Source: Bacteroidales bacterium (GTDB lineage Bacteria; Bacteroidota; Bacteroidia; Bacteroidales; UBA3663). From it: DNA of 64,000 bases. The notes below the pieces were generated by a model that ran no database searches, was not told the origin of the DNA, and was given only the letters and a program-made list of their open reading frames with translations. Of the stretch, positions 35,811-56,767 are shown one piece after another. The translations under genes were made by a program, and so were the position numbers. The DNA lies in the NCBI GenBank assembly GCA_017618715.1, contig JAFZTS010000037.1, positions 11,849 to 75,848 of the forward strand, given 5' to 3'. Each line of letters starts with the position of its first letter. The first letter of the stretch is position 1.

Positions 35811-35857
35811 CGATTGAATAATCGTATTGTATTAATGGAATTTTGTGTCTTGAGTTG

Positions 35858-36229: not shown

Positions 36230-36347
36230 GATTAAATAGTTATATTTCTGAAAAGTTGAGTTGGCAATAGAGCAACATCATATCAAGCATATTCTTATTA
36301 TTTTATTAAAATGTGAGAGCTTTAACTGTTTTTTCATGTATTTTACG

Positions 36348-36355
36348 TATTTTTG
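36348..36355 (+). promoter_or_regulatory. Candidate -7 box (TATTTTTG) for the giant-gene pair
   Basis: Matches TAnnTTTG and lies 97 nt upstream of the ATG at 36452 in an AT-rich region. I found no clean -33 TTTG at the expected spacing. Confidence 0.3.
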
Positions 36356-36451
36356 CAAAGCCAAATTGTATATTGTTCCAGTGATGGAACATATTATTTT
36401 GCTTTTTCCTTCCTAAACTTTGGATAAATTATTATTCTAATCCCCATAATC

Positions 36452-39400
36452 ATGAAACAGCAGATCTATCAATTGTGTAGAAGAATGCGACAGTCACAGC
36501 TGTGCCTATCGCGACTCTTCGCAATCATGTTATTGATGCTCCCTTATTGGAGTCTTGACAGTCTTGCCGATGACTACAATTACCCCGAGAACTATTTCAA
36601 GCTCGTAAGTTCCGGCAATGTGACCGTCAGCCAACCTTACGTTGACTTTGATGTGATGGTGGTCAACTACGATGGCACCGATGACTGTCTGAACACTTCA
36701 CCCATCTATATCGGCAACGGCTCCGAAGAAATCCTGGTGGGCTATGTCGATTACTATTACGACAGTTATTCTTATGTGCGCAATTTGGGAGACCTCTATT
36801 ATTACGGCTGGTTTCAGGTCATTGCTGACCGATATAAGGAAGGTCAGGATAGCGATTACAAGATAACCAAGTACCGCTATTATTTCGGAGACAAGGTGTT
36901 GCGTATGGCAGGCCTTAAGAAGACCCCCTTGGGTTATGTCCAGAACAACAAATATACCCTGAAGATGCGCATCGAGCAGCTTTGGGATTTCGATCACGAT
37001 GCTAAGGAGATTGTCACCAAGAAGGCGTGGTTCGTCTTGCCCGATGTGGTTACGGAATGGGGCCAGCAGTTCAGCTATACCGTGAAGCGCATTGACCGCA
37101 AGAAGGTGCAGGCTACAGTTAATGCACCTAACGCCGATCGTGCCCTTTCGCGTCGATTGATATTCCACAGTGAAGATTGTTATGTGGATCCCGGTTCGGC
37201 TAATTATGGCTTTTCCAAGTCGTTCTCGGCTTTGGCGAATACCTATTATGTCGATCTCCCAAAGGAGTTCGACCCTTCAAGGGAATATGACATCTGGTCG
37301 TATTGCAGCACCCTCTCTTCAGAGGGCGTTACCATTGGCCGTTTTAGTGGAGCGAATTTCAACTCACCACGTTTCAATTTCATCATTCCCGATTGCTGGC
37401 ACGCTTCGAATCTGGTAGCCACGCCCGACATGTGGAACAAGAGCGTGAACCTCACGTGGCAGGCCGAGTGCAGCCAGCCCTCGCTGGCCGAGACCGCCGG
37501 ATCGTGGTACATCTTCAAGTATGCAGGCGACCTGAACACCCGTGGCGCTACACCCAAGTATGTGGGAAAGGTGCCTTTCAAGGGTGTCAGGGATACTTAT
37601 TCCTTCACCGACCCCTGCGACAGCTATGACGCTCCATACGTCTATATCGTTAGTTTCGGCTTGAACGGATGGTCGGACCTCGAGAAGACGCCCGTCGATG
37701 AACTGGTCCGCAAAGTGGAGGTCAACAACCAGCGCGACTGGGATATGCAGCTCTATACCGAACGCCGACCCAGCTCGATTGTCCTGGAGTGGGAGCACGA
37801 GCGCGTCCCCGAGGCCAATGCTTCGCCTTTCTATGTGGAGCACCGCACCAGCCAAAGCGCTCCCTGGACAATCCTGGCCGAGGTGAACGAGCCCAATCTC
37901 ACGAAGCACTCCTGGCAGCATCGCGACCTGATTGATAAGGAGGCCGTCCACTACTATCGCATCCGCACCCATTTGCTCGACACAGACTTCACGGTCGAAG
38001 ATGTAAACACGACGCTCGGAACGAATGCCATCCGTTCGCTGGAGGCCTCGAAGGGTACTTTTGCGGGCGAGGTACACCTGTCGTGGGAATGCGAGATGAA
38101 CAATGACCGCGAGATGAACTTCGAGATCTTCCGCCGTCTGTCGGGCAGTGATGCCGCATGGGTACAGTTGGGCGAGATGCGCGGCACGGCCCAGACCTTT
38201 ACCTTCGTCGATGATACGCCGGTGCCCGGCAACTTCTACGACTACCGTGTGTCGTCAACATATCTGGAGGATGACGGCCACCGCACCAATCCCGTCTTCT
38301 GCTCGGCCAGCGGATTCAGCATGTCAACGGGCATCATCAGCGGTAAGGTGGCCTACGGCACCGGCACGGCTGTGGCTGGCGTGAAGATGAACCTCACCGT
38401 CGATAGTGACGACCCCACTCAGACACAACTCTATTCGATGCGCGTGCGTGACATCGGTGGTGGCCTGAAGGTTCTGCGCCCAACCGAGGAGCTGGTTTCG
38501 CTCTATACCAATCCGTTCACTGCGCAGCTTTGGGTCTATATTACTCCGAATGGGGGTACACCTGTCACACAGTGCTTCATCGACGCACAGCACGCCTTCA
38601 CCCTGCTGGCTATGCCACAGAACGACGGCACCTATCGCCTCGCGCTCGAAAAGGCCGACGGCGGCCAGTTGCTTAGCGACATCTACCTGCGTTCCTATTT
38701 ATATTATAATGTATCGGTGTCGTTCGACAACGGTAAGGTTACCCTGCATGCCATCGATTCGCGCGACAAGCAGTTGAAGTCGTGTGCGCTCGAAACGAGC
38801 TATCAGATGGCAGCATCCCAGTTTGAAGATGCTGACGAAATGATTTCGGTCATCTTCGGCGGAAAGCAGCAAGCGACGTCGGCTGGCCCCTACTTCACGG
38901 GATATATCGACGATGTGCGCTTGTGGCGCACTGCCCTCAGCGACAGCCTTATCCTGGCTTCGTACGACAAGGTGTTGTCGGGCCAGGAGACAGGCCTTGC
39001 CATGTATCTGCCGCTCGACGAGAATATCAGCGGGCAGCAGACGGCCTACGACTACAGCATGAATGCCAACGGCACACACAACGAATGGCATGCTGATGTA
39101 CTGCCGGGCACCAAACCCGACACCAACGTCCCGGACGGCTCGCTGTCGCTCTACACCACGACCGACGAAGTGGGCAACTACATTATCCGTGGCATACCCT
39201 ACACGGGCGAGGGCACTTACTATGTAGTGCGCCCGACAATGGGTCTGCATGAGTTCTCACCCTCGTTCGTCAGCCGTTACATCAGCCCCAACTCGCTGGT
39301 GCACAGTGGTGTCAACTTCAAGGATGTCTCGAGCATCCCCGTGAGCGGACAGGCATTCTACAGGGGCACGCGCTATCCTGTGGAGGGAGCAACCCTGTAT

Positions 39401-42400
39401 GTCGATGGACAAGCCTTGATGATCGATGGCGAACTGGCCCAGACCGATGTGGAGGGCAAGTTCCAGATTTCGGTGCCCATCGGCAAGCACTTCATCGAGA
39501 TTCGTAAGGATGGTCACACCTTTGAGAACGGTGGCCGTTATCCCGCCGACCCCAACGATGAGGTCACTACGTTCACTTTCGAAAAGGAGGTGACGGGCTT
39601 GCGTTTCACCGACGAAACGCTGGTAACCATAGCCGGACGCGTGTGCGGCGGTCCCACCGAGAGCGAGAAGCCTTTGGGCTTCGGCGACAGCAAGAACAAC
39701 ATCGGCCAGGCTCAGATCACCATCGACGCCGGCTATCCGATGAACATCGAGGAGGTGGTGGAGGACGGCATTATCGTGCCTTACCCTGTGGCCGACAATA
39801 TCGCGTTGACTTCGCCTACCGACCAGGTGGAGTCGAAGGCATACATTTCGGGCGGCAAGACGGCTGACGAGACACGCTACATACACGTCACCACTGACCG
39901 AAAGACGGGTGAGTTTGCCGTCAAACTGCCTCCCTGCGTCTATAACGTAACGGCTGTCAGCGTTCCGTCGAACAGCGAGATACAGTTCACTGAATTGCCC
40001 ACTATCGATGCCACCGAGCTCGATATTCTCACCGACTCGATCAGCTTCGACTCGATCAACGCCATGTACTTCAGGTATGCTGCTGCGCTGAAGCAGACCT
40101 ACCGCACGGCACCGAGGCTTGAAGTGACCGACATGTCGAATCGGGACAAGGGCGCCTATGGCGATCTGTGGGCTCCCTACATCCAACCTCTTGGGCAAGT
40201 GGATTCGGTGCAGGTCTATCAGACCAATAGCGATGCCATCAGCTACCTCTTTGGACATCCTTTGCTGACGATGAACAAGCGGTATGTCTATGCGTTGCGT
40301 GTCACCGAGGATTACCTGAACCATGACAATCCTTCCGATGTCGTCAGATACCAGGATCCGGTGCAGAATGCCATCATCCACATCAACAATGAGTTCAGCA
40401 ACAACAAGGCGTTCTATTTCAAGGGAAGCGAGCGCGGCAAGATGGTCGATGCACAGATGTCCGATACCGTACACACGGATGAGAATGGATTGGCATCGTA
40501 CATGTTCCGTGCAGGCATGCCCAACGTCCTCGATGACCATACGCTGGGACTCAACCTCACCTATGTGGTGGACGAGAAGACCTACGAATGGAACCAGAAC
40601 GGCAAGTTCAGGGTCATCGTTTTGGGCAATCTCACCTATGGAAACGACTTCATCACTAAGGGGCCTGACGAGGTGGATTTCGTCTTGAGAGACCCGCCGG
40701 GCTCCAACTCACACGCCACTTTCCGCAAGAAGAACATCCACAGCAACCAGTGGACCATCAAGGTCACAGGCGGCAGCACCCAGGACATCAGGAAGGGAAC
40801 CAAGAAGCACAACTTCTCCACCAATCTCCGCATCATTGAGAACATGGTGACTGTCGAGGCTCCCGTGGCTGGCGACAACACGCAAATAATTTCGAATCAT
40901 GATTTGGGCATAAAAGGCAGCAAGATGGAGTACACGGTAAGCACCGATGGTGTGACGCGCGCCATGAACAAGGCGCTGGGCACCGTCTTCAAGACCCTTG
41001 CATCCACCGGAGGAGCATTCACGCTCGATCAAATCAAGAGTACACCGGAGTATGAAGCGGAGTTCAAGAAGAACCTGCTGTTTGAGGGAGAGTCCGAACT
41101 CGACCTGGAGAACACCTGGGACACCTTCAACGAGGAGATTATGGTTCATTATAATACTAGCCTGTATGTGGAGGAGGTGGGTGGATTCTTCGACATCCTG
41201 CGTTCGGCCATCTACAGCGAGGACATCAACACCAGCGACCTGCCGGAATTCGTCGGCGCCCCTGCCGACCTATTCTTCGGCAGCAGCGAAAACATCATCA
41301 TCGGCGACGTGCAGAGCGTCATGATCGAAAAGAATGCAAGCGGAAGGTACGAGATTGTGGTCGAGGACGACAAGGCAGTGAGCAACAGTATCGACTCGCG
41401 TTTCGTCTATACGGCTGACCATGTGGAAAATGGGCTGATCCCGCAGATGGAGACCAACCGCATGGAGCTGCTCACCGTGGTCACTCCCGACCAGCTGACC
41501 TCGATGCGTGCGGCGGGCAACAACAGTGACAAGATCGTCTATCTTACCACGCTCAGCCCCTCAGACCCCCGTTTCGGCACGCAGAACACCGACCAGAGCG
41601 TCTGGGGAAAACTTGCCTCCGACAGCGCCAGTGTGAGCGACGGCCCGTCGTACACGGCACTTTGGCCCAGCAATCCCACCGAACCCCTTCAGGACATGGT
41701 GCTCTTCTACAACACCAACATCGACCGCTGGCGCAACGTCTTGCGCGATAACGAACGTGACAAGGTAGAGGCCATCCGCCAGAACACCCTGATACATAAC
41801 CTGTCGGTAAGTGCAGGCTCAGTACAGACCTACTCAGAGATGAAGTCCGAAGGCTCTTCCGGCGGATGGGTGGGCAACAATGACATCTATTACCTCTCTA
41901 CCACCGAGATAGAGAGGAACGTGCAAGGCACGGCTCCCATGCCCGCATCATATAAGTTTGTCAAGTCGGGCATCAGCACCCGTGTGAACAACATGAGTGG
42001 CGACTCAGAAGAAAAAGGCACTGCCTATACCCTCTATGACACCGACCCTACCGACGCGCTCAGCGTGGATGTCTTGAGATCCCCCAAGCAGTATGGCCCC
42101 ATCTTCCGAACCCGTGGCGGTGTTACATCTTCACCCTATGAGGATCAAGTCGTCACCAAGTACTACAACAAGGGAACGGTCATCTCCGAGGCTACCGTGC
42201 CAGTGGATGCGCCACACCTCACGTTCGACAAGTACAGCGTGAGCAATGTGCCCAATGGGCTGAAAGCACACTTCACCATGCACCTGCAGAATGACGGCAC
42301 CACCACCTACGACCGCTATTTCATCATCGGCGTGGTGGATTCGACCAATGTCAATGGTGCTCTTATCACAGTCGATGGCAAGCGGGGTGGTGGAACCTTC

Positions 42401-45400
42401 CTCGTGCCCGCCGGCAAGACGCTCGACCTCGACATGAGCTTCGAACAGACTAACCTGGAGGTACTCGAATACAACGACGTGGCTATCTACATGAGGGCAC
42501 AGTCGCAGGCCGACGAGACCAGCAAGTACGGTGTGCTTGAGAGTGTGGTGCCCATCAGTGTCACCTATACACCATCGAGCTCGCCCATCCAGCTTGTTGT
42601 CTCTACTCAGACCATCAACTGCAACAGCGACACCACGCTCGTGCTCACCCTGAAGGGCTTCAACCGCCACTATCGCGGTCTGCAGGGCATTCGCCTGCTC
42701 AGCAGGTATTCCGATCAGCCCAACTGGAATGTGCTCAAGGAGTGGACCTGCGACAGCACGAACACCGAGCTTGAATACCTGCCCGTGGATAAGGCTGAGC
42801 TTACCTACAAGCTCTCGATGCGCAACACCATCGACTTCCCCGACGGATACTATTACTTCCGAGCCGAGACCTATTGCCAGTATGGCGATGCCCCAGTTAG
42901 CGCATTCAGCGATGAGTTGGCTGTGGCCAAGGATGTCGCCAAGCCCAAGATTCTCGGATTGCCTGAACCTGCCGACGGCATACTCGACATCGGCGAGATG
43001 CTTTCGCTCCGCTTCAATGAAAATATTCGCGAGGTGAGTGACCCAGAATACAGCATCATCGTCAAGGGCGTGAAGAACGGCGTTTCGTATGAGCAGGGTA
43101 CAGCCTTGCAAATGAGCGGAGCCGACCAGACCGCATCGACTGAAGCTTCGATCAACTTCAATAGCCAACCTTTTGCCGGAGAGATGTGGCTGCGCTTGCG
43201 CAGCGCGGGCACCATCCTGCGGCATGGGCAGGGCAACCGCCATTTCGCGATCAGCGTCGATGAGGGCGGCCACCTTGTGGTCGATGTCAACGGTTCGGAG
43301 TTTGTCAGCCAGAACAGACTGCCGCTCGACGGAACCAAGACGTTCCTCAGCTACAGCTACAACTATAATCCCTATCAGAGCACATTATCGGCACAAGCTG
43401 CGGCAGATGACGCCACCATCCCGCTCTTCGAAGGCCAGCTCGTGCCTCAGTACAGTGCCGAGGGACGACTTGCCATCGGCCTTGGACTGAATGGCACCAT
43501 CCAGAACATGACGCTTTGGGACGTGGCACGCACACCGGACGAGGCTCTCCGGGAACGCAACCGCACGCATTCGGCAACCTCACGTGGACTGATAGGCTAT
43601 TGGAAGATGGACGAGGGCCATGGCAATGTCGTTCGCGACATCGTTCGCAGCCGTCACCTCATCGCCCCGGATGCCCTGTGGTATCTGCACAACAAGAATG
43701 AGGCAGCCCACTTCGACGGCACCTCCAAGCTTACTTTCCGTTCACCTGGCACACTCTATGAGGACGAGACGGCGAACTACGCCGTGGAGTTCTGGTTCCG
43801 TGGTGAGAAGGGGCAGCAGGTCAATACCAACCTGCTTGAAGCCGGATCGCAGAATTCAAAGGATTCGCTTGTCATCGTCCATAACGCTAATGGTCGCTTG
43901 CAATTAATTGCAGGAGGACGTACTACCACCGTTGGAACAACCGATTACTTCGACGGCCAGTGGCACCACCTGGCTCTGAATGTGCTCCGATTCGGGACGA
44001 CCAGCATCTCGATTGACGGCGAACGGATTGCCGAAACCTCATCGGCGAATGTTCCGACACTCGTAGGCAAGTTCGTCACTATGGGCAACAAATTCCATGG
44101 TGACATCGACGAGTTGAGATATTGGCGAGCCACCATGAGCCAGCAACTCTTGGCCAGCCGCATCTATGAGCGCGTCGATACCGCACAGGCCAAGCAGGAA
44201 GGCCTCGCCGTCTATCTGCCTTTCGAGGCAAGCAGCTACGACGACTACAACCAGCTTGTCACCGAGTTCTCGCTCGACAATCATAGCGGACACAAGATAG
44301 ACTTGACGGCCGAGAATGTATTGGCTGCCGTGAGTGCACCCAGCCTCAAGGAGGCTCCCGCCAACAGCGCGTGGCGGTTCAAGATGACGAAGAACGAGCG
44401 CGAGATCTACCTTGAGCTGACCGATGCCCTGAAGGACATCAACGGACAGCAAGTGACCGTCACCGTGCGCGAAGTCTATGACGAGCATGACAACTACTGT
44501 GATCCTATCAGTTGGACGACACTTGTCAACCAGAATCCGCTTGTTTGGGAAGACAAGTCGTTGGAATACTCCAGCACCCGCCGCGAAGGTGACATGAAGG
44601 CTTCCTTCCGCAACCTTAGTGGCACACAGCATCCATGGTTCATCACCCACCTGCCGGCTTGGCTTATTCCCGACAGGTCGCAGGGAACCATCGATCCGGG
44701 TGCAGGCCCACAGACTATCAACTTCACGCTGAGTCCCTCTCTTCCCATTGGTCACTATACCGACGTGATCTACCTCGTGAGCGAGGAGGGAATATACGAA
44801 CCATTGTCACTTGATGTCACTATCGAGGGAGAAAGACCCAATTGGTGGCCTTACACTTATACCAGCGATGTGATGAACATGATTGGGCAGATGAAGGTCG
44901 ATGGACGGATTCTGGAGGAGAACTCCTTGCTTGGTGCATTCACAGGCGATAAGTGTGTGGGTGCGGCTTCACCCATCTACAATAAGAACCATGACACCTG
45001 GTTTGTGATGCTCTCCATCTATTGTAACGATGCCGACAAGGGCAAGCCGCTTCAGTTCAAGATTTGGGATGGTTCAACGGGTATCACCTATCCGATGGTA
45101 CTTACTGAACAAGCCTATACTATCCAGAAGAATATGCTCTTCGGCTCGTTCGCCGATCCCGTCATTTGGGAAGCCTCGCACGAGGCCGAGCAGACACTCC
45201 ATATCTTCGGCGGGTGGAACTGGTCATCGCTCTACGTCATTCCTTCCGATCCACAGTTGACCAATCTCTTCGTTTCGCCGCAGGAGGGCAACCGCATCTT
45301 GAGCAGTGATGGATATGCTTCCTTCACCGATGGTCAGTGGCAAGGTAACCTTCAGACACTTGGAGTGGGCCAACTCTATAAGATTTATAGCCCCAACAGT

Positions 45401-46210: not shown

Positions 46211-46242
46211 AATAATAACGCAAACAAAAGTCATATCCAAAT

Positions 46243-49200
46243 ATGAAATCAACCAAATTGTTCTTATTGTTGACGCTCTTGATGGTGTCCCTTCCCACTG
46301 TTGTGAAGGCCAATGACAACGACAACATCGAGTTCTACTTCGAGGTGGTCAGCTATAATGATGTGAGTCCGGTGCAGCCATACGTTGACCTGAAGATACC
46401 TTTCATCAACTACAGTGGCATCAATGATGTGCTCTATCCCTCCAAACTCTATCTTTCGACGGCAACTGCGATGTCGAATTTCATGGGCGAAGAGTCAGAG
46501 GACATCGAAATCGCCTCTCTCAAAGGCGTCGATGGCGACGGGCTTGACCCGGGCTTCGGCAACGATGAGATTGCGTTCAGCGACATAAAGTCGGAGTATG
46601 TCACCCTCAAACCCATCTATTTTGAGGAGGAGAGCGACATCGCCATGGAGGTTGTACGTGTGTTCTTCACACAGAATGCCATCAAACTGGGTGTCACCTC
46701 CATCAAACTGATTGGATTCTGGGATACCGACAACAACGGCATCTATGACAAGCCGCTTTCGCTGGTCTCTGAGCTGCCCGACCTCCGCTATACCACGGCG
46801 CATGGTCTGCCCAATTGGAAAAACTTCTCAGTGTCGCGTCCCAAGGATGGGAAAGCCAGCATCACAGCCCAAAGGCCGGAATGGAAGCAATACAACAACT
46901 ATGATTCATACAGTTACTTGAATGGCCTTTGGAAGAAGACCAACTTCTACAATGTCCAGACTGACAAGAGTGTCGATGCAGCCGACGTGCGCAAGGCTAT
47001 TGACTTGCACGACCACTACGATTACCATCGCTACTATATCTTCCATTCGGCCGAGCAGCTTCCCGCATCGAAGACAGGCGATTTCGGCGTCTATCCTGTA
47101 GGTGCCGAGACGGCAGGTCGCGACAGCATGCTGCTGAGCCACACAGTGAGCAACCGCGACGAGATTGTCGTCTATTACACCGGTGGCATCGACATCGATG
47201 CTCACAACTTCGTCTATAACGAGGAGGCCTACAATACCTATGCCCTTCGCACCTTTGTGGACGAAGGCGGCCATTACGATACCAAGCTTTTCGATTATGC
47301 AGAGAATTATGAAATGGGCGTAGGGGCTACGCAGATTAAGACGTGTCTCTACAGCGAGCCCGAGGAGATTGTCATCCCCGGCTGCTACTATCCCGACATG
47401 GTCGATGCCACACCCGACATGTGGACCAGAAGCTTCAAGCTGAAGTGGTATCCGATGTCGGAGTCGGGGCGCAACGGCTTCAAGGATGGACGGTGGTATA
47501 TCTTCCGCTATGCCAAGGAGCAGGGCGAAAACACGCGCAAACTCGTGACTTCCTGCCCCTTCGACCAGACTACCTACACCGATGTGGTTGATGATGCCAA
47601 CTTCACCTACGTCTATGAGGTGTGCTTCTCGCGCGATGCCTGGGGTACTCCCGCGCAACCCATCGGCGACCTGACGGCTAAGGTCGAGGAGCGTATAGTC
47701 CGCGAATTCCCCATCGACCTTGAGGCCGAATCGGGCGCCGACCGTGTGATACTGAAATGGAGCCACTCGCGCATCAAGACCGGTTCGACGGCCTTCACCG
47801 TCTGGCACCGTCTTGATCCCGAAGCCAGCTGGGAGAAGCTGGCCACCGTCGATGAGTCGAGCAAGCTGCGTCACACCTATTCCCACGTCATTGAAGGTGT
47901 GCTCGACAAGGAGCAGCCCCATTATTATAAGGTGGATATAGCACTCATCGATACCGTCTTCACCGAGGAGGCCAACGCCAAGATCCTCGGTGGCAGCTGT
48001 GTCAAGACATTCAGCGCCTCGAAGGGACTTTATGCCGGCGAAGTGCGATTGAGTTGGGAAAGCGAAATCAACTCCGACCAACTGGTTGACTATACCATCG
48101 AGCGCCGGCTCTTGGGTACCAACGATGCCTTCGAGAAGATCCACGAGATGAACGGCGTAGGCACCTTCTTCTCTTATAGCGACAAGAATGTGCGGGCAGG
48201 CAGCTACTACGAATACCGCGTCACCTCGTGCTTCATCACCGAGACGGGTGAGATGAGCAGCCGTATTTCGCTCATCGATGTGGGCTTCAGCCAGAGCACT
48301 GGCACTGTTTCAGGACGTATCGTCTATGGCACGGGTCAGGCTGTCGAAGGTGTGAAAGTGCGTATGACAAAGAACGACGGCGACAGCGAGGAAGCACGCA
48401 CGCAGTATTATGCCATGCGTGTGAGCAACCAGGGAGCAGGTATGCAACTTACTCGTCCGGCCGATGACTTGAGACGGCTATACGCCAGTCCCTCGGGCTT
48501 TACGTCGCAGTTCTGGGTAAGATTGGATGAAAGAATTGCCGAGTCTCTTGGCACCTCAGTGAATATAATGCCCATGATCTGTGAGATGGAGGGTGGATAT
48601 AGCCTTTTTGCTTATTTGAAGAACGACGACACCTATGGACTTAGGCTGGGTGGTAACGAAGGAAAGATAATCGACACAGGACTCGCTATAGAACCTGACC
48701 GATACTACAATTTCGCCTTCGGACGCAATGCCAATGGATGGACAGTTCGTTTTGTCGATGCCGACAAGAAGGTTCAAGTGTTTGAAACGGTGTCCAGCGA
48801 TTCTCCTGCATTTTCTGCCGATAGTGCCAGTATTTATTTCGGTACAGATGCCAACAATACGCTGGAGAATACCTTCCTCGGATATTTCGACGAGGTAAGA
48901 ATCTGGAATCGCTACCTCACAGACGAGGAGCTGCTTTCCAACTACGACCATCCGCTCATCGGTACCGAGGCCGACCTGCAGATGTATTGGAGCCTCGACG
49001 AGAACGTTCCGAACCAGCGCACGGCCTACGACTACAGTTCGACCAACGGACGCCGCAACGAGTGGCACGGCCTGTTGAAGAACGGCACCTACACCACTGC
49101 AAGTGTAGTGCCTATCGACTACCTCGGACTCTATGCCTTCACCAACTCCGAGGGCAACTATGTCATCAAGGGCATCCCGTTCAAGGGCGACGGCACCAAC

Positions 49201-52200
49201 TATGTGGTGCGCCCCACGATGGGACTCCATGAGTTTGAGGATCATTTCCAGACGGTCTATATCAGCGGCACGTCGCTCGTCCACGATGGCGTCAACTTTA
49301 CCGATGTGAGCAGTTTCGCCGTGAAGGGACGTGTCATGTACGAAAATACCGATTATCCCGTCGAGGGCGTAAAGTTCTTCATCGACGGTGTCTCTGCCAA
49401 GCGAGGCGGCAAGGAGGTCGTTTCAGATGTGAACGGCAACTTCACACTCAGCGTGCCCATCGGCAACCACTACATCTCGGTATCAAAAGACGGACACACA
49501 TTCCTCAACGGCGGACGCTATCCCGCCGATCCTGACAGAGTGGGCACCACCCTGCTGGTGGAGGACAGCATCAGCGGACTCCTCTTCACCGATAAGACAC
49601 TGGTGAACATCAGTGGCCGTATCTGCGGCGGCACCGAGGAGAAAGCCAGGGACCTCGGCCTCGGCCTCAGCAAGAATAATATAGGCCAGGCGGTGGTGAC
49701 CCTCGCCTCCACACGTTCGCTCAATGTGGTGACTCGCCTCAACGAGGCTGGTGTGCCCGTGCAGGAGTATAATGACCAGCAGCGCATGGTCGAGAGTGCT
49801 ACGAAGGACGTCAACAGTCGTGCCTTTATCACGGGCGGAAAGAGCAACGATGCCACCAACCGCGTGGTGGTCACCACCGATTCGCTCACGGGCGAGTTCT
49901 CCATCATGGTGCCACCCGTGCGCTATCGCGTGGAAAGTATCGTCGTGCCGTCCAACAAGGACATTACATTCAACAACCTGCCCTACCTGAATCCCGATCC
50001 CACCATCTTCTTTACAGCCTACGACAGCCTGCAGGACAAGCAGTATATCTACAACCTGCCTTTCGTGCGCAGCTATCAGGCTCAACCCGTCTTCAAGGTG
50101 TCCGATAGACGTTACGACCGTAGGAAGATAGGTGCTTTCGGCGACAGCCTCTACAACTATGTGCCTCTTGAGGGCACCGATACCATCCCCATCGCCCTCT
50201 ATCAGCAGAAAGATGGCAAGATCGACTATACCTTCGGCTATCCGGTCTATCGTATGGGCGAACTTAGCCGCTTCGAGATTTCCGTGCAAGAGGAATACCG
50301 TAATTTTGACAATCCCGACTCCACCATCGTGAGCCGCGTGCCCGTCAAGGGTGCCGCCATCCAGATAGTCAACGAAGGCTCTGCAGCGGTCAGCGTAGGC
50401 TATGCCGACAGCAACCTCGGCAACCGGACCATGGCGAGCGATTCGCTGAAGACCGACTCGCTGGGTCTCGCCATCTACGAATGGGGCGTGGGACTGCCCA
50501 ATGTACACGCTCCGCACACCCTCGGCCTCAACATGACGATAACAATCGATGGCCGCACCTACGACTGGGAGCAGAACGGAGCGTTCAAGTACATCATTCT
50601 GGGCTTGCTGCAGACAGGCAATGACTTCGTCACCGACGGTCCCGACCATGTGTCGATGGTGCTGCGCGATCCTCCGGGAAGCAATTCCTTTGCAAAGATT
50701 GAGAAAGGTTCCACTTCAACCAAGACGCTCGTCTGGTCAGTACTGGGTTATATCAATAGAAGGAAGGTAAGCGGCAATTTCGGTTCGACGGTAACCCATG
50801 GCCCCGGCAACGTGCTGATGCTTACGTACAACCTCAATCGCCATCTGACAGGTTCGGATATCCTTGTCAACGATGGTTACAAGAATTCGAGCTTCCATTC
50901 GACCATATTGACCGAGGATGTGGCCACTGACAGCACGCGTCAGTTTGTGGGTGCATTGGGCGACCTCTTCATCGGACAAAGCACCAACTTCTCGGTGGGC
51001 GATGCACGGACGGTGGATATTCGCCGTAACGCTCAGGGCGCGTTTGTTGTCAACTGCGAGATTGAGCCATCTGTGTCGCAGGACTACAAGACCAGCTTCA
51101 CCTATACCACCTATTACATCACACATCATCTCCTGCCCGAACTCGAACGCCTTCGCAACGCCTTGCTTCAGACAGTGTCCGATCCTGCTGCTCAGAAGGG
51201 TAATGCCTCTGATCACAACCTCTACTATACATCTCTTAGCCAGGAGGATGAGCGGTTCGGCTCCAGCAACCACGATAAGGAGATCTGGGGTGCATCGGCA
51301 ACGGATGAGGATGTCGTAGGTGGCGGCCCAAGCTATTGGGTGGTTTATCCCGATGTAATGGAGAAAGGCAAGTTCTATCAGGATAGGGTACAGTATTACA
51401 ACGACTGTATCACCAACTGGAAGAACATCCTTGCCGGCAACGAGGAAGACAAGAAGCGCAGCATCTCAAGGGGAAGCTATTACGAGGACGACGATGACTT
51501 CAAAAGCTCCGACCACAATCTGTCAATCTCAGGCGGCACGAGCATCACCAAGTCCTTCACACGCGATACGGTTGATACGAAAGGCGGCTCGGTTCATGTG
51601 TTGTTATCTGGCGGACTTGAGGATGACTACGGTTTGCGAAGAGGGGATGTCTATCGTGTGAACTACTTTGTCACAGGCATAGAGACCGACGATTCGTACT
51701 CCTGGACCTCCAAAGGTCATCAGACTACGTCGTTCACCTTGCGCGATGATGATCCCACCGATGCCCTGACCGTCGATGTGCTTAAGTCGCAGAGCGGCTG
51801 GGGTCCCGTGTTCCGCACCCGTGGCGGTCGCACCAGTGCCCCATACGAGGATGAGGTCATCGCCGAGTACTTCGATGGTAAGTCGGTGCTCAGCGAGAAG
51901 ACCATCGCCGTCGAGCAGCCCCACCTCTGGTTCGACAAGACTTCGGTAGTGAATGTGCCAGGCGGACAGCGCGCTGTCTTCCAGGCTCATGCCCAGAACG
52001 CTTCGCCCACAGGCTATGACCGCTACTTTGAGATTGGCGTCAAGGAAGGCTCCAACCCGAACAACGCCAAGATATTTGTGGCAGGAAAGGAGGGAGGCGG
52101 CACCTTCCTCGTCCCTGCTGATCATGCTTTGGATTTGCAGTTGCTGGTTGAGCAGACCAATCCCGCCATCATCGAGTATAATGACTTGCAGATCTATCTG

Positions 52201-55200
52201 CGCTCCGTAGTGCAGGGTGACCCCACTGGCACCTATCCCGTTATCGAGGATGTGGTACCTATCAGCGTCACCTTCACCAAAGCTTCCACGCCTGTCACTA
52301 TCTACACCAGTAGCTCGGTGCTTAACACCAACAGTGATTCCACATTTGTGGTGGGAGCCAAGGATTTCGATCGCGATTTCAAAGGTTTGCAGGGAGTTGA
52401 TCTTCTCTACAGGGTATCCGAGAGTCCCGAATGGCATCTGCAGCACGGATGGGTCACCGACTCGACGAAAGTTGATGCCCAGCACGAATACCTGCCCGAG
52501 GGTGTGAGCGACGTGTCGGTAAGTTTCAACATCACCAACCCACGGCTCTTCCCCGACGGTCCTTATTATTTCAAGGCCGTCACAAAGGCAGACTTTGGTG
52601 ATACTCCCGTCACTGCCGAGAGTGAAGTGAAAACCGTCATCAAGGACCTTTCGAAGCCCAAGGTGATGGGTTATCCTGAGCCAGCCGATGGTGTTCTTGG
52701 ATTGGGTGAGAGCATCTATCTCACCTTCAACGAAGACATCCAGCCGCTCACTTCACCCGAAATGAGTGTCATCGTCCAGGGTACCCGCAATGGCGAGGAC
52801 TTCGAGCAGAAAACCGCACTCCAGATGACAGGAGCCGACGAGACTGCCTCCACCGAGTCGAGCATTTCGATCGACAAGCAATCGTTTGCTGGTGAGTTCT
52901 GGGTACGCTTGCAGAGTGCAGGCATTATCCTGCAGCATGGCGCAGATGCCAATGGCTTCTCGCTCTCCACAACCGACGACGGACAAATCAGCTTGACTAT
53001 GCGCAACAAGGTTTATTCTGCGGCCAACCGTGTGCCCATGAATGAGAAGATCTTCATCGCATGGTCCTACGATGCCGACCAAACCACGTTCTCCGCACTG
53101 GCACTCAGTGCTAACCGTACCATTCCGCTCTTCCAGAACGAGAAGGTGGGTGCTTACTCCGGCTTCGGAAAGATTATCGTGGGCAACAAGCTCAAGGGTA
53201 CCATCCAGAACCTCTCGCTTTGGAACATCGCTCGCGATATCGAGACGGCTGCCGAACAGCGCAATTGGAGTCGCACTACCCTCACACCCAACCTTATCGG
53301 ACACTGGAAGATGGACGAGGGTCATGGCGAATTGCTACACGACATTGTGCTCGGTCGTCATCTGCGAGCCAAGAATGCCAACTGGTGGCTCGACAATGTG
53401 AACTACTCTGCACGTGTCGATGATGGAAAATATATCACCATGCTGTCTCCAGGCTCGCTCTACGACGATGAGTCCAGCGATTACGCTTTCGAATACTGGT
53501 TCCGTGGCGAACCTGAGCAGCCCGACTCAGTGGCTACTCTGTTCTCCACTTCCGATGGTTCAATGCAGCTGATGTATCACGTCGATTCGAAGTCGCTCGT
53601 GATGGTATCGGACAGCACCGTTGCAGTCATCAGCCAAGGTGATGTATTCGAAGGTGCTTGGCACCATATTGCACTCAATGTTCGCAGGACAGGTGTTTCG
53701 GCCATCTATCTCGATGGTGAGCGGTTGATTGAAATCAACCAGCACTTCATCCCGTCGCTGAAGGGCAAGACCTTTACATTGGGAGCAGAGCGCATCTTCA
53801 CGGGTTACGATGACAAGAACGTAGCGCAATATGATACCCGCTTCCCCATGCGCGGAAACATTGACGAAGTGCGCTATTGGCGTGCTACGATGGATAATCG
53901 CCTCGTGGATAACCGCTATAGTCGTATGGACTCTTTGCAGTCCAAGTATTTGGGATTGGCACTCTACCTGCCTTTCGAAGAGGGCATCTTCGATGAGTAC
54001 AACCAGCAAGTCATCCGTTTCTCGACCGACGACAAGAGCGGCAATGATTGTCGGACCATCGCAGCAACCGTCACCGAGGATACAAATGCTCCTGGACTGA
54101 AAGAGATGACACGCCAGACGGCCCTCGAATACAACCTTACACAAAGCGATCGTCAGATTTATATCACGCTCAATGAGCAACTTTCGCTTGTCGAAGGCAC
54201 CACTGCCTACGTCACTGTCCGCAACGTCACCGACAGCCATGGCAATATCTCCGACCCCATTACCTGGCCGGTATTTATCCGACAGAACGGTTTGAGGTGG
54301 AATGTTAGCAATATACATCTCGCTACAGGTGGTAAGGATTACGAGTGGGTAAAAGAGGCCTCGTTCACCAACCACGGCTCCAAGACTGAGACATGGCACC
54401 TTGAAAACGTTCCCGATTGGCTCGAAATGTATGAACCTGAAGGAAGACTTGATGCTCAACAGACAGGCTCCATATCGTTCTACATCAGTAGTAGCGCATC
54501 TGTCGGTGAGTATGAGACCATCATTTATCTTGTGGGCGAAAGTGGCATTTACGAGCCGCTGTTAATCACCGCTACCGTTTCGGGCGAAATGCCGCTCTGG
54601 GCTTACAAAGATATTGAGCGTGGATCGGAGACGATGACAATGACCGGACAGATCAAGCAGGACGGTAAGTTGCTCTCCAATACCAATTCGTTACTCGCCG
54701 CCTTCCGTGGCGACAAGTGCGTGGGCAGGACCAATCCTGTATATAACGCCGAGTTCGATACCTATTTCACTTACCTCACTATCTTCGGTGAACCCGAGAA
54801 TGAGGGCGAGCCTCTGAAGTTCAGAATCTGGAATGCCGCTACCGGCATTGATCATCCCGATGTCATTTGCTCTGTGCCGAATGTCGCATTCTCAGTCAAT
54901 GCTCATCATGGTACACACTCCGATCCTGTGCAATGGAATGCCACAGAGTCTGCATCCCAGGCACTGGCTTTGAACGAGGGTTGGAACTGGATATCGTTCT
55001 TCGTTGATCCGTACGACAAGAAGATTGCTTCAATCTTCGGATCCGACCGATCCATCACCGAGGTGAAGGGCATCAGCTCATTTGCTCGCAGCTCCGGCAC
55101 CAAGTGGGTAGGTCAGCTCAAGGAGGTGAAGATAGGTGATATGTACAAGGTGAATGCCAACAAAGAGAAGGACCTGAGTGTCGATGGAATGATTCGCTCG

Positions 55201-55962
55201 GCTGGCGAAGTGAGTGTGAAACTCAATCACCAGTGGAGCTGGATAGGCCTGACCACTCCATATACCACCGACGTTAAGACAGCTTTGGCTGATGCCAATC
55301 CTCAAAATGGTGACATCGTAAAGACCAATAATTCGTTTGCTGTCTATGATCACGGCGAGTGGTTCGGCGACCTCAAAGCCATCTATCCGGGTAGGGGCTA
55401 TCTCTACTACAACAATGCAGAAGAGAAGACCTTCCATTTCGGCACCTCGACAACCATCGATTCCAGCTATGCACCGCGAAGGGCCAAGGCGCAAAGCTTG
55501 TTCTCACCCGTGCCTGAAGGCACATATTCCGGCAATATGACCGTGATAGCTGTCATTATGCGAGGTGGTGAGATTGTCACCGACGGTGAGTTGGCAGCGT
55601 TCGTTGGCGATGAGTGCCGCACGGCTTCCACTTACGTGGAGGATGGCATGCGCTTCCTCACCATTCCTGGAGAAGGATCCGGATCTACCATCCGATTCTA
55701 CTTCTATGACGATACGCATCTGTTGTTGGCTGCCGAAACGCTCACTTACAACGATGACGATTTCATTGGCGGTATTGAAGACCCATTCGTCATCAATCTC
55801 GACAATGCGACAGTCGGCATCAGTGAAGTTGGCATATTGACTGGTGGAGTTGGTGAAGTCTTCGACGTATTCGGCAGGATGGTGCTTGACGCCAAGTCCA
55901 ATATCGAAGAATTGCCGAAGGGCGTATATCTCCGAAACGGCAAGAAGCTAATCATTAAGTAA
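46243..55962 (+). CDS. Giant secreted multidomain protein B (3,239 aa), an end-to-end paralog of protein A with the same architecture and a T9SS C-terminal sorting domain
   Basis: Signal peptide MKSTKLFLLLTLLMVSLPTVVKA. It is collinear with protein A from the N-terminus (YFEVVSYNDVSPVQPYVDLK vs YFKLVSSGNVTVSQPYVDFD), through the shared landmarks VLRDPPGSNS, GPVFRTRGGRTSAPYEDE, GYFDEVRIWNRYLTDEEL, GTIQNLSLWNIARD and GNIDEVRYWRATMDNRL, to the tail VFDVFGRMVLDAKSNIEELPKGVYLRNGKKLIIK. It is separated from gene A by only 32 nt. Confidence 0.9.
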   Translation: MKSTKLFLLLTLLMVSLPTVVKANDNDNIEFYFEVVSYNDVSPVQPYVDLKIPFINYSGINDVLYPSKLYLSTATAMSNFMGEESEDIEIASLKGVDGDGLDPGFGNDEIAFSDIKSEYVTLKPIYFEEESDIAMEVVRVFFTQNAIKLGVTSIKLIGFWDTDNNGIYDKPLSLVSELPDLRYTTAHGLPNWKNFSVSRPKDGKASITAQRPEWKQYNNYDSYSYLNGLWKKTNFYNVQTDKSVDAADVRKAIDLHDHYDYHRYYIFHSAEQLPASKTGDFGVYPVGAETAGRDSMLLSHTVSNRDEIVVYYTGGIDIDAHNFVYNEEAYNTYALRTFVDEGGHYDTKLFDYAENYEMGVGATQIKTCLYSEPEEIVIPGCYYPDMVDATPDMWTRSFKLKWYPMSESGRNGFKDGRWYIFRYAKEQGENTRKLVTSCPFDQTTYTDVVDDANFTYVYEVCFSRDAWGTPAQPIGDLTAKVEERIVREFPIDLEAESGADRVILKWSHSRIKTGSTAFTVWHRLDPEASWEKLATVDESSKLRHTYSHVIEGVLDKEQPHYYKVDIALIDTVFTEEANAKILGGSCVKTFSASKGLYAGEVRLSWESEINSDQLVDYTIERRLLGTNDAFEKIHEMNGVGTFFSYSDKNVRAGSYYEYRVTSCFITETGEMSSRISLIDVGFSQSTGTVSGRIVYGTGQAVEGVKVRMTKNDGDSEEARTQYYAMRVSNQGAGMQLTRPADDLRRLYASPSGFTSQFWVRLDERIAESLGTSVNIMPMICEMEGGYSLFAYLKNDDTYGLRLGGNEGKIIDTGLAIEPDRYYNFAFGRNANGWTVRFVDADKKVQVFETVSSDSPAFSADSASIYFGTDANNTLENTFLGYFDEVRIWNRYLTDEELLSNYDHPLIGTEADLQMYWSLDENVPNQRTAYDYSSTNGRRNEWHGLLKNGTYTTASVVPIDYLGLYAFTNSEGNYVIKGIPFKGDGTNYVVRPTMGLHEFEDHFQTVYISGTSLVHDGVNFTDVSSFAVKGRVMYENTDYPVEGVKFFIDGVSAKRGGKEVVSDVNGNFTLSVPIGNHYISVSKDGHTFLNGGRYPADPDRVGTTLLVEDSISGLLFTDKTLVNISGRICGGTEEKARDLGLGLSKNNIGQAVVTLASTRSLNVVTRLNEAGVPVQEYNDQQRMVESATKDVNSRAFITGGKSNDATNRVVVTTDSLTGEFSIMVPPVRYRVESIVVPSNKDITFNNLPYLNPDPTIFFTAYDSLQDKQYIYNLPFVRSYQAQPVFKVSDRRYDRRKIGAFGDSLYNYVPLEGTDTIPIALYQQKDGKIDYTFGYPVYRMGELSRFEISVQEEYRNFDNPDSTIVSRVPVKGAAIQIVNEGSAAVSVGYADSNLGNRTMASDSLKTDSLGLAIYEWGVGLPNVHAPHTLGLNMTITIDGRTYDWEQNGAFKYIILGLLQTGNDFVTDGPDHVSMVLRDPPGSNSFAKIEKGSTSTKTLVWSVLGYINRRKVSGNFGSTVTHGPGNVLMLTYNLNRHLTGSDILVNDGYKNSSFHSTILTEDVATDSTRQFVGALGDLFIGQSTNFSVGDARTVDIRRNAQGAFVVNCEIEPSVSQDYKTSFTYTTYYITHHLLPELERLRNALLQTVSDPAAQKGNASDHNLYYTSLSQEDERFGSSNHDKEIWGASATDEDVVGGGPSYWVVYPDVMEKGKFYQDRVQYYNDCITNWKNILAGNEEDKKRSISRGSYYEDDDDFKSSDHNLSISGGTSITKSFTRDTVDTKGGSVHVLLSGGLEDDYGLRRGDVYRVNYFVTGIETDDSYSWTSKGHQTTSFTLRDDDPTDALTVDVLKSQSGWGPVFRTRGGRTSAPYEDEVIAEYFDGKSVLSEKTIAVEQPHLWFDKTSVVNVPGGQRAVFQAHAQNASPTGYDRYFEIGVKEGSNPNNAKIFVAGKEGGGTFLVPADHALDLQLLVEQTNPAIIEYNDLQIYLRSVVQGDPTGTYPVIEDVVPISVTFTKASTPVTIYTSSSVLNTNSDSTFVVGAKDFDRDFKGLQGVDLLYRVSESPEWHLQHGWVTDSTKVDAQHEYLPEGVSDVSVSFNITNPRLFPDGPYYFKAVTKADFGDTPVTAESEVKTVIKDLSKPKVMGYPEPADGVLGLGESIYLTFNEDIQPLTSPEMSVIVQGTRNGEDFEQKTALQMTGADETASTESSISIDKQSFAGEFWVRLQSAGIILQHGADANGFSLSTTDDGQISLTMRNKVYSAANRVPMNEKIFIAWSYDADQTTFSALALSANRTIPLFQNEKVGAYSGFGKIIVGNKLKGTIQNLSLWNIARDIETAAEQRNWSRTTLTPNLIGHWKMDEGHGELLHDIVLGRHLRAKNANWWLDNVNYSARVDDGKYITMLSPGSLYDDESSDYAFEYWFRGEPEQPDSVATLFSTSDGSMQLMYHVDSKSLVMVSDSTVAVISQGDVFEGAWHHIALNVRRTGVSAIYLDGERLIEINQHFIPSLKGKTFTLGAERIFTGYDDKNVAQYDTRFPMRGNIDEVRYWRATMDNRLVDNRYSRMDSLQSKYLGLALYLPFEEGIFDEYNQQVIRFSTDDKSGNDCRTIAATVTEDTNAPGLKEMTRQTALEYNLTQSDRQIYITLNEQLSLVEGTTAYVTVRNVTDSHGNISDPITWPVFIRQNGLRWNVSNIHLATGGKDYEWVKEASFTNHGSKTETWHLENVPDWLEMYEPEGRLDAQQTGSISFYISSSASVGEYETIIYLVGESGIYEPLLITATVSGEMPLWAYKDIERGSETMTMTGQIKQDGKLLSNTNSLLAAFRGDKCVGRTNPVYNAEFDTYFTYLTIFGEPENEGEPLKFRIWNAATGIDHPDVICSVPNVAFSVNAHHGTHSDPVQWNATESASQALALNEGWNWISFFVDPYDKKIASIFGSDRSITEVKGISSFARSSGTKWVGQLKEVKIGDMYKVNANKEKDLSVDGMIRSAGEVSVKLNHQWSWIGLTTPYTTDVKTALADANPQNGDIVKTNNSFAVYDHGEWFGDLKAIYPGRGYLYYNNAEEKTFHFGTSTTIDSSYAPRRAKAQSLFSPVPEGTYSGNMTVIAVIMRGGEIVTDGELAAFVGDECRTASTYVEDGMRFLTIPGEGSGSTIRFYFYDDTHLLLAAETLTYNDDDFIGGIEDPFVINLDNATVGISEVGILTGGVGEVFDVFGRMVLDAKSNIEELPKGVYLRNGKKLIIK

Positions 55963-55970
55963 ATTATTCA

Positions 55971-56007
55971 AGAGTGGCACCTCATTTGGGGTGCCACTCT
56001 TTTTTTC
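55971..56007 (+). terminator. Strong rho-independent terminator after giant gene B
   Basis: Stem GAGTGGCACC / GGTGCCACTC with a short loop, followed by TTTTTTT, beginning 9 nt after the stop codon. Confidence 0.85.
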
Positions 56008-56167
56008 CCTATTTTTTTGCAAACCAGTTAACCTTTGTTTGAAAACCGACACATGAAGATGAAAAGACCCATTCCAATCCCCAAGCATAGGGGTGGAGAC
56101 TTTTCCCGACTGGCAAACAAGGGTAAATAAATATGGCGATTTTCTTGCATAATCACGGAAAATACTG

Positions 56168-56175
56168 TATCTTTG
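56168..56175 (+). promoter_or_regulatory. Candidate -7 box (TATCTTTG) for the ECF sigma factor gene
   Basis: Matches TAnnTTTG and lies 20 nt upstream of the ATG at 56195. Confidence 0.4.
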
Positions 56176-56194
56176 CACCCGAAAAATTACAATC

Positions 56195-56767
56195 ATGGCA
56201 AAGAACAATATCTTACCAAATGCAACCATCGCCACGCTGAATGCCTTTGCGGGTGAGCAGCGCGAGAAGACCATCTTATGGCTAAGCACAAAGGGCGTAA
56301 GCCAGAATGATGCGGAAGACCTCTTCCAGGATGCGTTCATCACGCTGTACGATCAGCTCACGACGGGCTACCTCGAAGAAATGCCCCGTTCGCTGGCAGC
56401 CTACTTCCACGGCATCGTTCAGAACAAGCTGAAGGAGCATCACAGGCTGGTGCAGAAGCTGCTCGACAATGAGGATGAGCGCGACGTGGCCGACTTCAAC
56501 GAGGACTTCCTCAACGAGGTGCTTGCCGAGGACGACTCACGGACAGTGGAACGCAAGGAGGCTGCTGTGCGACAAGTGGTGCGCAACTTGCCCGACCCTT
56601 GCAACAAGCTGCTTTGGGGTTATTATTTCGACAATCACTCCATGCAAGAGCTGGCCGACCTCTACGGATACAAGTCGACCAACAGCGTGAAGGTAATGAA
56701 GAGTCGCTGTATGGATAAGTTTGCAGCAGCTATGAAAGTAATATTTAATGAAATGTTCAATGATTAA
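56195..56767 (+). CDS. RNA polymerase sigma-70 family factor, ECF-like
   Basis: 190 aa. Region 2-like AEDLFQDAFITLYDQL and region 4 HTH LPDPCNKLLWGYYFDNHSMQELADLYGYKSTNSVKVMKSRCMDKF. Confidence 0.85.
   Translation: MAKNNILPNATIATLNAFAGEQREKTILWLSTKGVSQNDAEDLFQDAFITLYDQLTTGYLEEMPRSLAAYFHGIVQNKLKEHHRLVQKLLDNEDERDVADFNEDFLNEVLAEDDSRTVERKEAAVRQVVRNLPDPCNKLLWGYYFDNHSMQELADLYGYKSTNSVKVMKSRCMDKFAAAMKVIFNEMFND

Follow-up and report, generated by a model that had tools for sequence, protein, structure and literature searches.

Giant proteins exported by a type IX secretion system (T9SS) shape how Bacteroidota adhere to, move on and attack their surroundings, and few of them have been studied so far (SprB, RemA, GhpA and the gingipain complexes). 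RemA of Flavobacterium johnsoniae carries a lectin domain. GhpA, the grappling hook of Aureispira, is a heptameric T9SS cargo of 5,898 amino acids (aa) with 52 immunoglobulin (Ig) repeats and PorP/PorE partners (bioRxiv 10.1101/2024.01.29.577165). With respect to secretion signals, Prevotella intermedia is the only species reported to have T9SS C-terminal domains (CTDs) of both lengths; its short CTDs comprise 43-55 residues, their cleavage and C-terminal glycosylation were demonstrated by mass spectrometry, and they are modelled as binding PorV in the way long CTDs do (Ye et al. 2025, Open Biol, PMC11969387). Here we analyzed two giant genes, A and B, that lie head to tail in a 64,000-nucleotide (nt) stretch of contig JAFZTS010000037.1 from an uncultured rumen Bacteroidales bacterium; this whole stretch is referred to below as the window. 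We found that A and B belong to a large, uncharacterised, Bacteroidota-wide family of proteins of ~2,700-3,400 aa. The tandem pair as such is of modest note: the genes are deposited, though uncharacterised, and were duplicated within one lineage in an ordinary way, after which they diverged. What is new is its placement in a very large, architecturally fixed, phylum-wide family with a core that matches no described domain or fold. Our best explanation is that A and B are co-transcribed, T9SS-exported, surface-anchored binding proteins with diverged specificities, and we give this reading about an even chance of being correct. The two genes are arranged as follows.

36452..46210, + strand: gene A, an uninterrupted open reading frame (ORF) of 3,252 aa encoding a giant LamG protein (ORF list and translation)
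46211..46242, + strand: A-B spacer of 32 nt, without a hairpin and without a -7 box
46243..55962, + strand: gene B, an uninterrupted ORF of 3,239 aa, paralog of A

The product of A is identical to the NCBI entry 'MAG: hypothetical protein J5543_05095 [Bacteroidales bacterium]'. An identical B adjoins A in 4 independent assemblies; thus, the arrangement is not an assembly artefact. The closest relatives of the pair come from sheep omasum and other rumen-type metagenome-assembled genomes.

Both proteins align end to end, at 23-34% identity, with proteins of 2,800-3,300 aa from gut, rumen, marine, soil and wastewater sources. The hosts include Prevotella, Alloprevotella, Prevotellamassilia, Paludibacter, Porphyromonas cangingivalis and Muribaculaceae, as well as Saccharicrinis, Prolixibacteraceae, Cyclobacteriaceae, Flammeovirgaceae, Flavobacterium and Aquimarina. 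Searching with a profile of the ~1,000 central residues retrieved 1,545 clusters (50% identity) at E<=1e-30, and 2,646 when the limit was relaxed to E<=1e-3, with the match at the same relative position in nearly all of them, and the invariant family motifs LRDPPGSxS and GPxFxTRGGxTS(C)PYE, both of which are present in A and B, were found in at least 594 loci of species-representative genomes. Locus comparisons described below cover 78 loci, taken from the best 80 of these at least 594. The architecture is fixed and non-repetitive across members: beta-sandwiches, a LamG domain and a CarboxypepD_reg-like domain precede the core with its LRDPPGS and TRGGxTSxPYE motifs, which is followed by Ig-like domains, two LamG domains, a C-terminal module and a secretion tail. 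A and B share this order, and differ from other members in having a short rather than a long CTD, Ser (A) or Ala (B) in place of the usual Cys of TSCPYE, a ~100-aa insertion in A, and a tandem arrangement, most members being single; Flavobacteriia members lack the extra N-terminal ~450 residues of A and B. At NCBI the family carries only the names 'LamG-like jellyroll fold domain-containing protein' and 'T9SS type A sorting domain-containing protein' (carriers of these names include Flavobacterium sp. LM4, F. artemisiae and Prevotellamassilia timonensis), and a full-text literature search combining T9SS or type IX secretion with LamG returned no paper on the giant family. One of the 78 loci, L012 (CAVKDU010000072.1), is labelled Wujia chipingensis, from a genus that we take to belong to Firmicutes, and the family member that it encodes barely differs from those in Prevotellamassilia and in uncultured Prevotella (L013-L015); it is probably a mis-binned contig. 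The remaining 77 loci have Bacteroidota or unclassified labels.

The recognisable domains are listed below.

38495..38947, + strand: A, LamG domain 1 (aa 682-832; PF13385, 38.3 bits, E 1.9e-9)
39368..39520, + strand: A, CarboxypepD_reg-like beta-sandwich (aa 973-1023; PF13620, 24.4 bits, below cut-off)
43118..43543, + strand: A, LamG domain 2, weak (aa 2223-2364; PF13385, 22.8 bits, E 1.1e-4)
43718..44146, + strand: A, LamG domain 3 (aa 2423-2565; PF13385, 47.5 bits, E 2.8e-12)
48487..48930, + strand: B, LamG domain 1 (aa 749-896; PF13385, 46.9 bits)
49321..49497, + strand: B, CarboxypepD_reg-like domain (aa 1027-1085; PF13620, 29.1 bits, below cut-off)
52837..53235, + strand: B, LamG domain 2, weak (aa 2199-2331; PF13385, 19.1 bits, E 1.6e-3)
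53467..53889, + strand: B, LamG domain 3 (aa 2409-2549; PF13385, 41.7 bits)

Scanned as whole proteins, A scores 80.3 bits and B 79.6 bits for PF13385, where the Pfam cut-off is 27.6 bits. The three LamG signatures per protein recognised in an initial annotation, which was made from the DNA letters and an ORF list, are present, the middle one falling below the cut-off when the domains are scanned individually; at its position the family profile gives pentraxin-type PDB matches. Of the beta-sandwiches named there, the CarboxypepD_reg-like domain is recognisable (PF13620 is matched by 7 of 11 aligned family members at E<0.01), with scores in A and B under the cut-off of 32.3 bits, and the proposed FN3-like modules were not recovered, no FN3 model matching A or B in the Pfam scans. 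The part without a nameable domain, which the initial annotation put at over 1,000 residues, amounts rather to ~1,900 in each protein; these residues have no NCBIfam, PHROGs or PDB sequence match. Scans of A and B against NCBIfam and PHROGs gave nothing informative, a PDB sequence search with A alone found no match, and the same search with the family profile found LamG/pentraxin and T9SS CTD matches only. It was also correct that A and B are neither SprB nor BspA. The motif D[ST][AILVMT] for O-glycosylation in Bacteroidota occurs 12 times in A (12.9 expected from composition) and 18 times in B (13.7 expected); these counts agree with expectation and are thus uninformative.

The domain content bears on function. 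Judging from the domain types, binding to glycans, other cells or particles is the most probable role. PF13385 belongs to the ConA-like lectin/glucanase superfamily, BACON-type domains are found in 2 of the 11 relatives, and rumen Bacteroidales secrete many carbohydrate-active enzymes by T9SS, so that A and B could be giant secreted enzymes that degrade or modify glycans, with the ConA-like domains or the unnamed regions being catalytic. However, no glycoside hydrolase, lyase or esterase family matches A, B or the 11 relatives, and the neighbours of the pair are not polysaccharide-utilisation genes; we consider catalysis very unlikely.

A and B are colinear paralogs. BLASTP aligned A310-1526 with B376-1592 at 38.3% identity over 1,247 aa, and A1583-3251 with B1551-3237 at 38.8% over 1,725 aa; in the best 100-aa windows the identity reaches 54-55%, in agreement with the earlier estimate that roughly half of the residues are identical in the best blocks. 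The paralogy does not, however, extend from the first residues, as had been claimed: the first 310 (A) and 376 (B) residues are barely alignable, windows across the first 300-400 residues have 15-33% identity, and BLAST matches a single 49-aa stretch there. Apart from the LamG domains (one 45-aa match between LamG1 and LamG3), the comparison of A with B revealed no internal repeat array. In addition, A contains an extra ~100 aa at ~1430-1590 (window ~40739-41221), absent from B and from all other relatives, which changes rapidly between A orthologs (identity of 96% with P0002 but 48-52% with P0004). The identity between A and B is thus lowest in the first 300-400 residues and in this insertion, which falls in a hairpin tip of the core. 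Because divergence peaks in the head and in the hairpin tip, two binding specificities are suggested, rather than an obligate complex of A and B.

We asked how often the pairing recurs. Flanks of 2.5 kb or more are visible to both sides in 40 species-representative loci, and 4 of these 40 have a second family copy; overall, about 5 of 78 loci have one (L009, L010, L030, L062, and a partial copy in L046), i.e., ~90% of family loci are singletons. Among the loci examined, orthologous A+B pairs are limited to L001-L003, L009 and L010, which are the closest relatives and in which the identity is 74-85% for A and 80-83% for B; both genes are intact in at least 4 related species-level genomes, as expected for two full-length, maintained paralogs. 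In a neighbor-joining tree of the central region, the A clade and the B clade are sisters, and A and B are 40% identical in this region, compared to at most 36% to any other member, indicating that a single old duplication took place in this lineage of rumen Bacteroidales. In the same tree the two L062 copies do not group as sisters, which indicates that adjacency of family copies, though rare, arose more than once.

These data can be read in favor of obligate partners, that is, of A and B forming one heteromeric surface structure or a receptor/ligand pair: in four or more related species the two copies have stayed intact and side by side, with a short spacer and a shared terminator, and independent tandem copies exist in L030 and L062. 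Conversely, the ~90% of singleton loci mean that the family works without a paralogous partner, and A and B have the same architecture, each with its own signal peptide and secretion tail, with nothing complementary found between them. We regard obligate partnership as unlikely. The initial inference of two non-redundant partners is likewise weakened, homologs occurring mostly as singletons, a result that had been named beforehand as speaking against it.

Export of A and B as separate, diverged binding proteins would depend on signals at both of their ends.

36452..36568, + strand: A, signal peptide; basic n-region followed by hydrophobic LFAIMLLMLPYW and by SLA|DD (by eye)
46067..46207, + strand: A, short T9SS C-terminal signal of 47 aa; QPT|SLEAI...VYDVLGRRI...KGIYIQNGKKVVK (motifs compared to PMC11969387)
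46243..46311, + strand: B, signal peptide; MKSTKLFLLLTLLMVSLPTVVKA|ND (by eye)
55813..55959, + strand: B, short T9SS C-terminal signal of 49 aa; NAT|VGISEV...VFDVFGRMV...KGVYLRNGKKLIIK (motifs compared to PMC11969387)

The signal peptides reported initially were seen again: judged by eye, both proteins have a basic n-region, a hydrophobic core and a cleavage site with small residues, and the true start of A may be Met12. At the other end, inspection of the tails revealed motif B of the form Y/F-x-x-x-G-R (VYDVLGRR in A, VFDVFGRM in B), motif D of the form G-x-Y-I/L (KGIYI, KGVYL), and motif E of the form K-K-x-x-K (NGKKVVK, NGKKLIIK), as well as residues resembling a cleavage site (QPT|S in A, NAT|V in B). 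The short-CTD cargo of P. intermedia provides the closest comparison. The tails of A and B fall inside its range of lengths, and they share with it a cleavage-site motif near PT/GI, a Gly followed by a basic residue in motif B, GxY followed by Ile or Leu in motif D, and two C-terminal basic residues in motif E; it should be noted that the P. intermedia signals were shown experimentally, whereas those of A and B are predicted from sequence. The family provides further context. The tails are at the same position as the canonical CTDs of family members, the C-terminus of the family profile matches solved T9SS CTDs (8glk_D, E 6e-9; 8glj_D, E 2.5e-5), and PF18962 is matched by 7 of the 11 aligned members. 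A canonical long CTD is present in 70 of 133 full-length family representatives; the other 63 mostly have short tails, many of the form ...YDLxGR...KGVYIxNGKKxxK. A strict tail pattern fits 12 of the 63 representatives without a long-CTD match, and many more show YDLxGR...GVYI by eye. Based on tail position, motifs and family context, we accept T9SS export of A and B as probable. The 'T9SS type-A tail' of the initial annotation thus holds as a short variant with the expected motifs, and not as a tail that the standard models detect. That gut and rumen members of the family use the recently defined short CTD is a new recognition. It should also be noted that two gingipain-like C25 peptidases, P0018 and P0021 (~2,000 aa), share with A 2908-3243 and B 2899-3188 an unannotated C-terminal module of ~340 residues with GWNW-type motifs; because it is common to the peptidases and to A/B, this is a portable pre-CTD module of T9SS cargo.

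The most conserved part of the family is its core.

40592..42241, + strand: A, core module (aa 1381-1930); LRDPPGSNS at aa 1412-1420 and GPIFRTRGGVTSSPYE at aa 1882-1897, includes the ~100-aa insertion
50566..51948, + strand: B, core module (aa 1442-1902); long beta-hairpins and long helices, LRDPPGSNS and GPVFRTRGGRTSAPYE

An AlphaFold model of B 1103-2134, built from 11 sequences (predicted local distance difference test, pLDDT, 62.7), showed confident beta-sandwiches flanking a poorly resolved centre. For the centre itself (B 1442-1902, to which the core of A is homologous according to the alignments), an AlphaFold2 model from 37 diverse sequences reached a pLDDT of 71.6 and a predicted template-modelling score of 0.67; it contains two long helices and seven strands, each 20-33 residues in length, as well as two hairpin tips that are rich in Gly, partly amphipathic and modelled with low confidence. 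From the order of secondary-structure elements, the conserved motifs would lie at the end of the core opposite to these tips. The central ~1,000 aa match no Pfam family and no PDB sequence, and a PDB search with the core profile likewise gave nothing. A Foldseek search with the core model placed secretins first (InvG, GspD, PilQ, RcpA; E 3e-5 to 1e-3), followed by toxins of the aerolysin family (E about 0.02, probabilities at most 0.25).

Secretins and aerolysin-type toxins share with the modelled core very long antiparallel beta-hairpins, and the core could accordingly be an oligomerising beta-barrel or pore-forming module, which would make the family surface-delivered toxins or multimeric appendages resembling GhpA. 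The long strands and the partly amphipathic tips of the model, the identity of the top Foldseek matches, and invariant motifs suggestive of a mechanism beyond spacing are in line with this, and oligomeric T9SS cargo has a precedent (bioRxiv 10.1101/2024.01.29.577165). However, template-modelling (TM) scores of these matches were only 0.08-0.16, with root-mean-square deviations above 20 A, and a TM score of at least 0.5 was not reached; there is no Secretin, aerolysin or MACPF Pfam match in A, B or the 11 relatives, and the domain context is different. A lineage-specific insertion of ~100 aa in one tip of A is hard to square with a length-constrained membrane hairpin, and GhpA has a different architecture. 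In our view, repetitive 3Di strings produced by long hairpins can inflate Foldseek E-values. We consider the barrel or pore reading distinctly unlikely. The same low probability applies to its broader form, in which the core would be a new oligomerisation or membrane-active module and the family would consist of multimeric surface machines (pore-forming or contact-dependent effectors, or ring- or fibre-forming appendages), with A and B perhaps co-assembling in this lineage.

Other fold matches fared no better. The model of the 1,032 central residues of B resembles the alpha-2-macroglobulin/complement C3 family in its strings of beta-sandwich, macroglobulin-like domains, and this family had the best E-values in Foldseek; however, A and B have no CxEQ thioester motif and no A2M Pfam match, and the matches to alpha-2-macroglobulin, C3/C5 and ciliary proteins had TM scores of about 0.1, so that homology was rejected. 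Comparison of the core model to viral structures found nothing meaningful. We treat the weak matches of both models to secretins, aerolysin-type toxins and alpha-2-macroglobulin/complement proteins as reflections of long hairpins and tandem beta-sandwiches, rather than homology; an undescribed module is the best label for the core.

The transcription signals around the pair are listed below, together with the two genes that follow it.

36348..36355, + strand: candidate Bacteroidetes-type -7 box, TATTTTTG = TAnnTTTG, 104 nt 5' of the A start codon
55970..56008, + strand: intrinsic terminator directly 3' of B (hairpin at 55970-56001), 14-bp stem with 8 G-C pairs, T-run
56195..56767, + strand: extracytoplasmic function (ECF)-type sigma factor (TIGR02937, 53.6 bits), with its own -7 box at 56168
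56780..57553, + strand: probable anti-sigma factor (weak match to NF052375, E 4.9e-4, far below cut-off)

The coordinates and a hairpin scan agree with the initial description of two head-to-tail ORFs, a hairpin-free 32-nt spacer and a strong terminator after the second gene, the latter being the strongest terminator-like site in the 20-kb region. A motif scan found a single TAnnTTTG in the 640-nt intergenic region upstream of A, none in the 343 nt preceding B, and a further one ahead of the ECF sigma gene. The bicistronic layout that had been proposed is plausible in view of the box 5' of A, its absence before B and the single strong terminator after B; nevertheless, the background of 0.34 motifs per kb on the + strand means that the box lends weak backing both to a promoter of A and to a bicistronic transcript. 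The guanine-plus-cytosine (GC) content of the pair (0.47-0.57) is close to that of most of the window (0.47-0.55), and its composition is therefore unremarkable, as initially noted; the exception is a low-GC (0.42) restriction-modification island just 5' of the pair.

Two diverged copies of a surface protein side by side, with their most variable parts probably the most exposed, could also represent antigenic or phase-variable alternates, of which one is expressed at a time. However, a check for invertible promoters and riboswitches upstream of A yielded no convincing inverted repeats and no Rfam match: there are weak inverted repeats only, the best of which (35855-35869 / 36344-36358) consists of two divergent TAnnTTTG -7 boxes, one for the methylase operon (- strand) and one for gene A (+ strand). 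No recombinase among the window genes adjoins the pair, and B is not preceded by a separate promoter motif. This alternative appears highly improbable.

Taken together, the evidence can be arranged in the following way, if A and B are indeed diverged, co-transcribed binding proteins. A promoter 5' of A would drive one message of ~19.5 kb covering A and B, with termination after B. Both products would be exported by Sec; the T9SS would recognise the short C-terminal signal of 47-49 aa, where the PorU sortase would cleave, and the new C-terminus would be attached to a surface glycolipid. We infer this anchoring, and an orientation at the cell surface in which the variable N-terminal ~350 residues would be farthest from the cell. 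The LamG domains, the string of beta-sandwiches and the ~430-residue core of beta-hairpins and helices would form a large, non-repetitive surface protein, in which the three LamG lectin-type domains and the N-terminal head may bind ligands, while the conserved core may serve as a rigid structural or mechanistic centre. Divergence after the duplication, which is greatest at one exposed tip of a hairpin and in the head far from the cell, would have produced two specificities.

Several observations weigh against this explanation. The binding function is proposed from domain types alone, and co-transcription is deduced from weak sequence cues. The tails of A and B have no match to PF18962 (E<=10) or to TIGR04183 of NCBIfam (E<=1), either within the whole protein or in isolation, a profile of long CTDs from relatives scores them at ~1 bit, and motif B of the B tail has Phe where Tyr is strongly conserved, including in P. 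intermedia. Finally, the invariance of LRDPPGS and TRGGxTSxPYE, together with a fixed non-repetitive architecture throughout the phylum, is unusual for a plain adhesin; the invariant motifs hint at a mechanistic role of the core that lies outside the explanation given above.

Neighbouring genes vary among the loci. The question had been raised whether homologs always occur next to an ECF sigma pair; only L009 and L010 have kept such a pair downstream of B, where the sigma copies are 72% identical, and the anti-sigma copies, which adjoin the sigma gene, are 65-68% identical. In L010, the closest relative, B is separated from the ECF sigma gene by a 499-aa gene (16628-18124) that shares the C-terminal module of the giant; at this position there is a gap of ~1.4 kb (15199-16658) in L009, and only 233 nt (55963-56194) in the window. 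The gene was either lost in the window lineage or gained in the relative. Elsewhere, a same-strand neighbour of ~300-355 aa is located 5' of the giant gene in eleven loci (L004, L008, L057, L061, L066, L076-L079, L082 and L084; hosts in Flavobacteriia, Cyclobacteriaceae and Prolixibacteraceae), and the five checked (L004, L008, L057, L066, L078) contain a phage-tail-collar domain (PF07484). In genomes of the Flavobacteriia and Cytophagia type, the giant gene is often followed by a cadherin-repeat T9SS cargo of 800-1,100 aa or by a ~300-aa protein; the collar-domain protein, the giant and the cadherin cargo may constitute a surface module of three genes that is conserved. The gut and rumen lineages often have, after the giant, a 370-450-aa protein that shares its last ~130 residues and its tail. 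None of these collar-domain, cadherin-cargo or 370-450-aa neighbours is present in the window. A candidate conserved partner gene, obtained by single-linkage clustering of neighbours, was rejected, the cluster being held together by shared C-terminal modules and not by one partner family; the window contains no neighbour of this sort.

On the other side of the pair, directly 5' of A on the - strand, the window encodes a restriction endonuclease of the BsuBI/PstI type (33457-34368) together with a methyltransferase of the Eco57I/N6 type (34356-35810), with GC of 0.415-0.42 compared to about 0.5 elsewhere. L001 and L002 have aldo-keto reductase genes in this position, and the restriction-modification cassette of the window looks recently inserted. 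The 640-nt region 5' of A also contains a strong terminator-like hairpin (36192-36226, + strand; 16 pairs and a T-run); no ORF of at least 100 aa ends just ahead of it on the + strand, and it has no Rfam match. It could mark the end of a small RNA or of a short leader, or act on the opposite strand. Farther upstream, an ORF of 174 aa (31225-31749, + strand) has a T9SS type A tail that passes TIGR04183 (27.4 bits, cut-off 23), and the organism thus makes canonical T9SS cargo; this ORF runs into the beginning of another, whose product of 290 aa has a signal peptide and a weak Lcl_C-like domain (region 31225-32618, + strand).

Hundreds of species carry the family, ranging from Prevotellaceae of rumen and gut to Flavobacteriia and Cytophagia of marine and soil habitats, and in its fixed architecture of 3,000 residues ~60% of the residues match no described domain. 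Working out the core would give a function to thousands of 'hypothetical' giant genes, and would extend the short-CTD secretion signal beyond P. intermedia.

GhpA was considered as a family match and rejected, given its length, its 52 Ig repeats and its PorP/PorE partners. Likewise, the features typical of SprB and GhpA, i.e., an array of Ig-like repeats and a PorP/SprF-type partner gene, were not found at this locus, where the pair is flanked by genes for restriction-modification on one side and for the ECF sigma and probable anti-sigma factors on the other. Like SprB and RemA of F. johnsoniae and GhpA, A and B are, as predicted from their sequences, very large, exported by Sec and T9SS, attached to the surface, and built of many beta-sandwich domains. 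Unlike SprB and GhpA, which are dominated by Ig-like units repeated tens of times and come with a partner gene of the PorP/SprF type, A and B have no PorP/PorE-like neighbour among the window genes, are non-repetitive, and combine LamG domains with a unique core.

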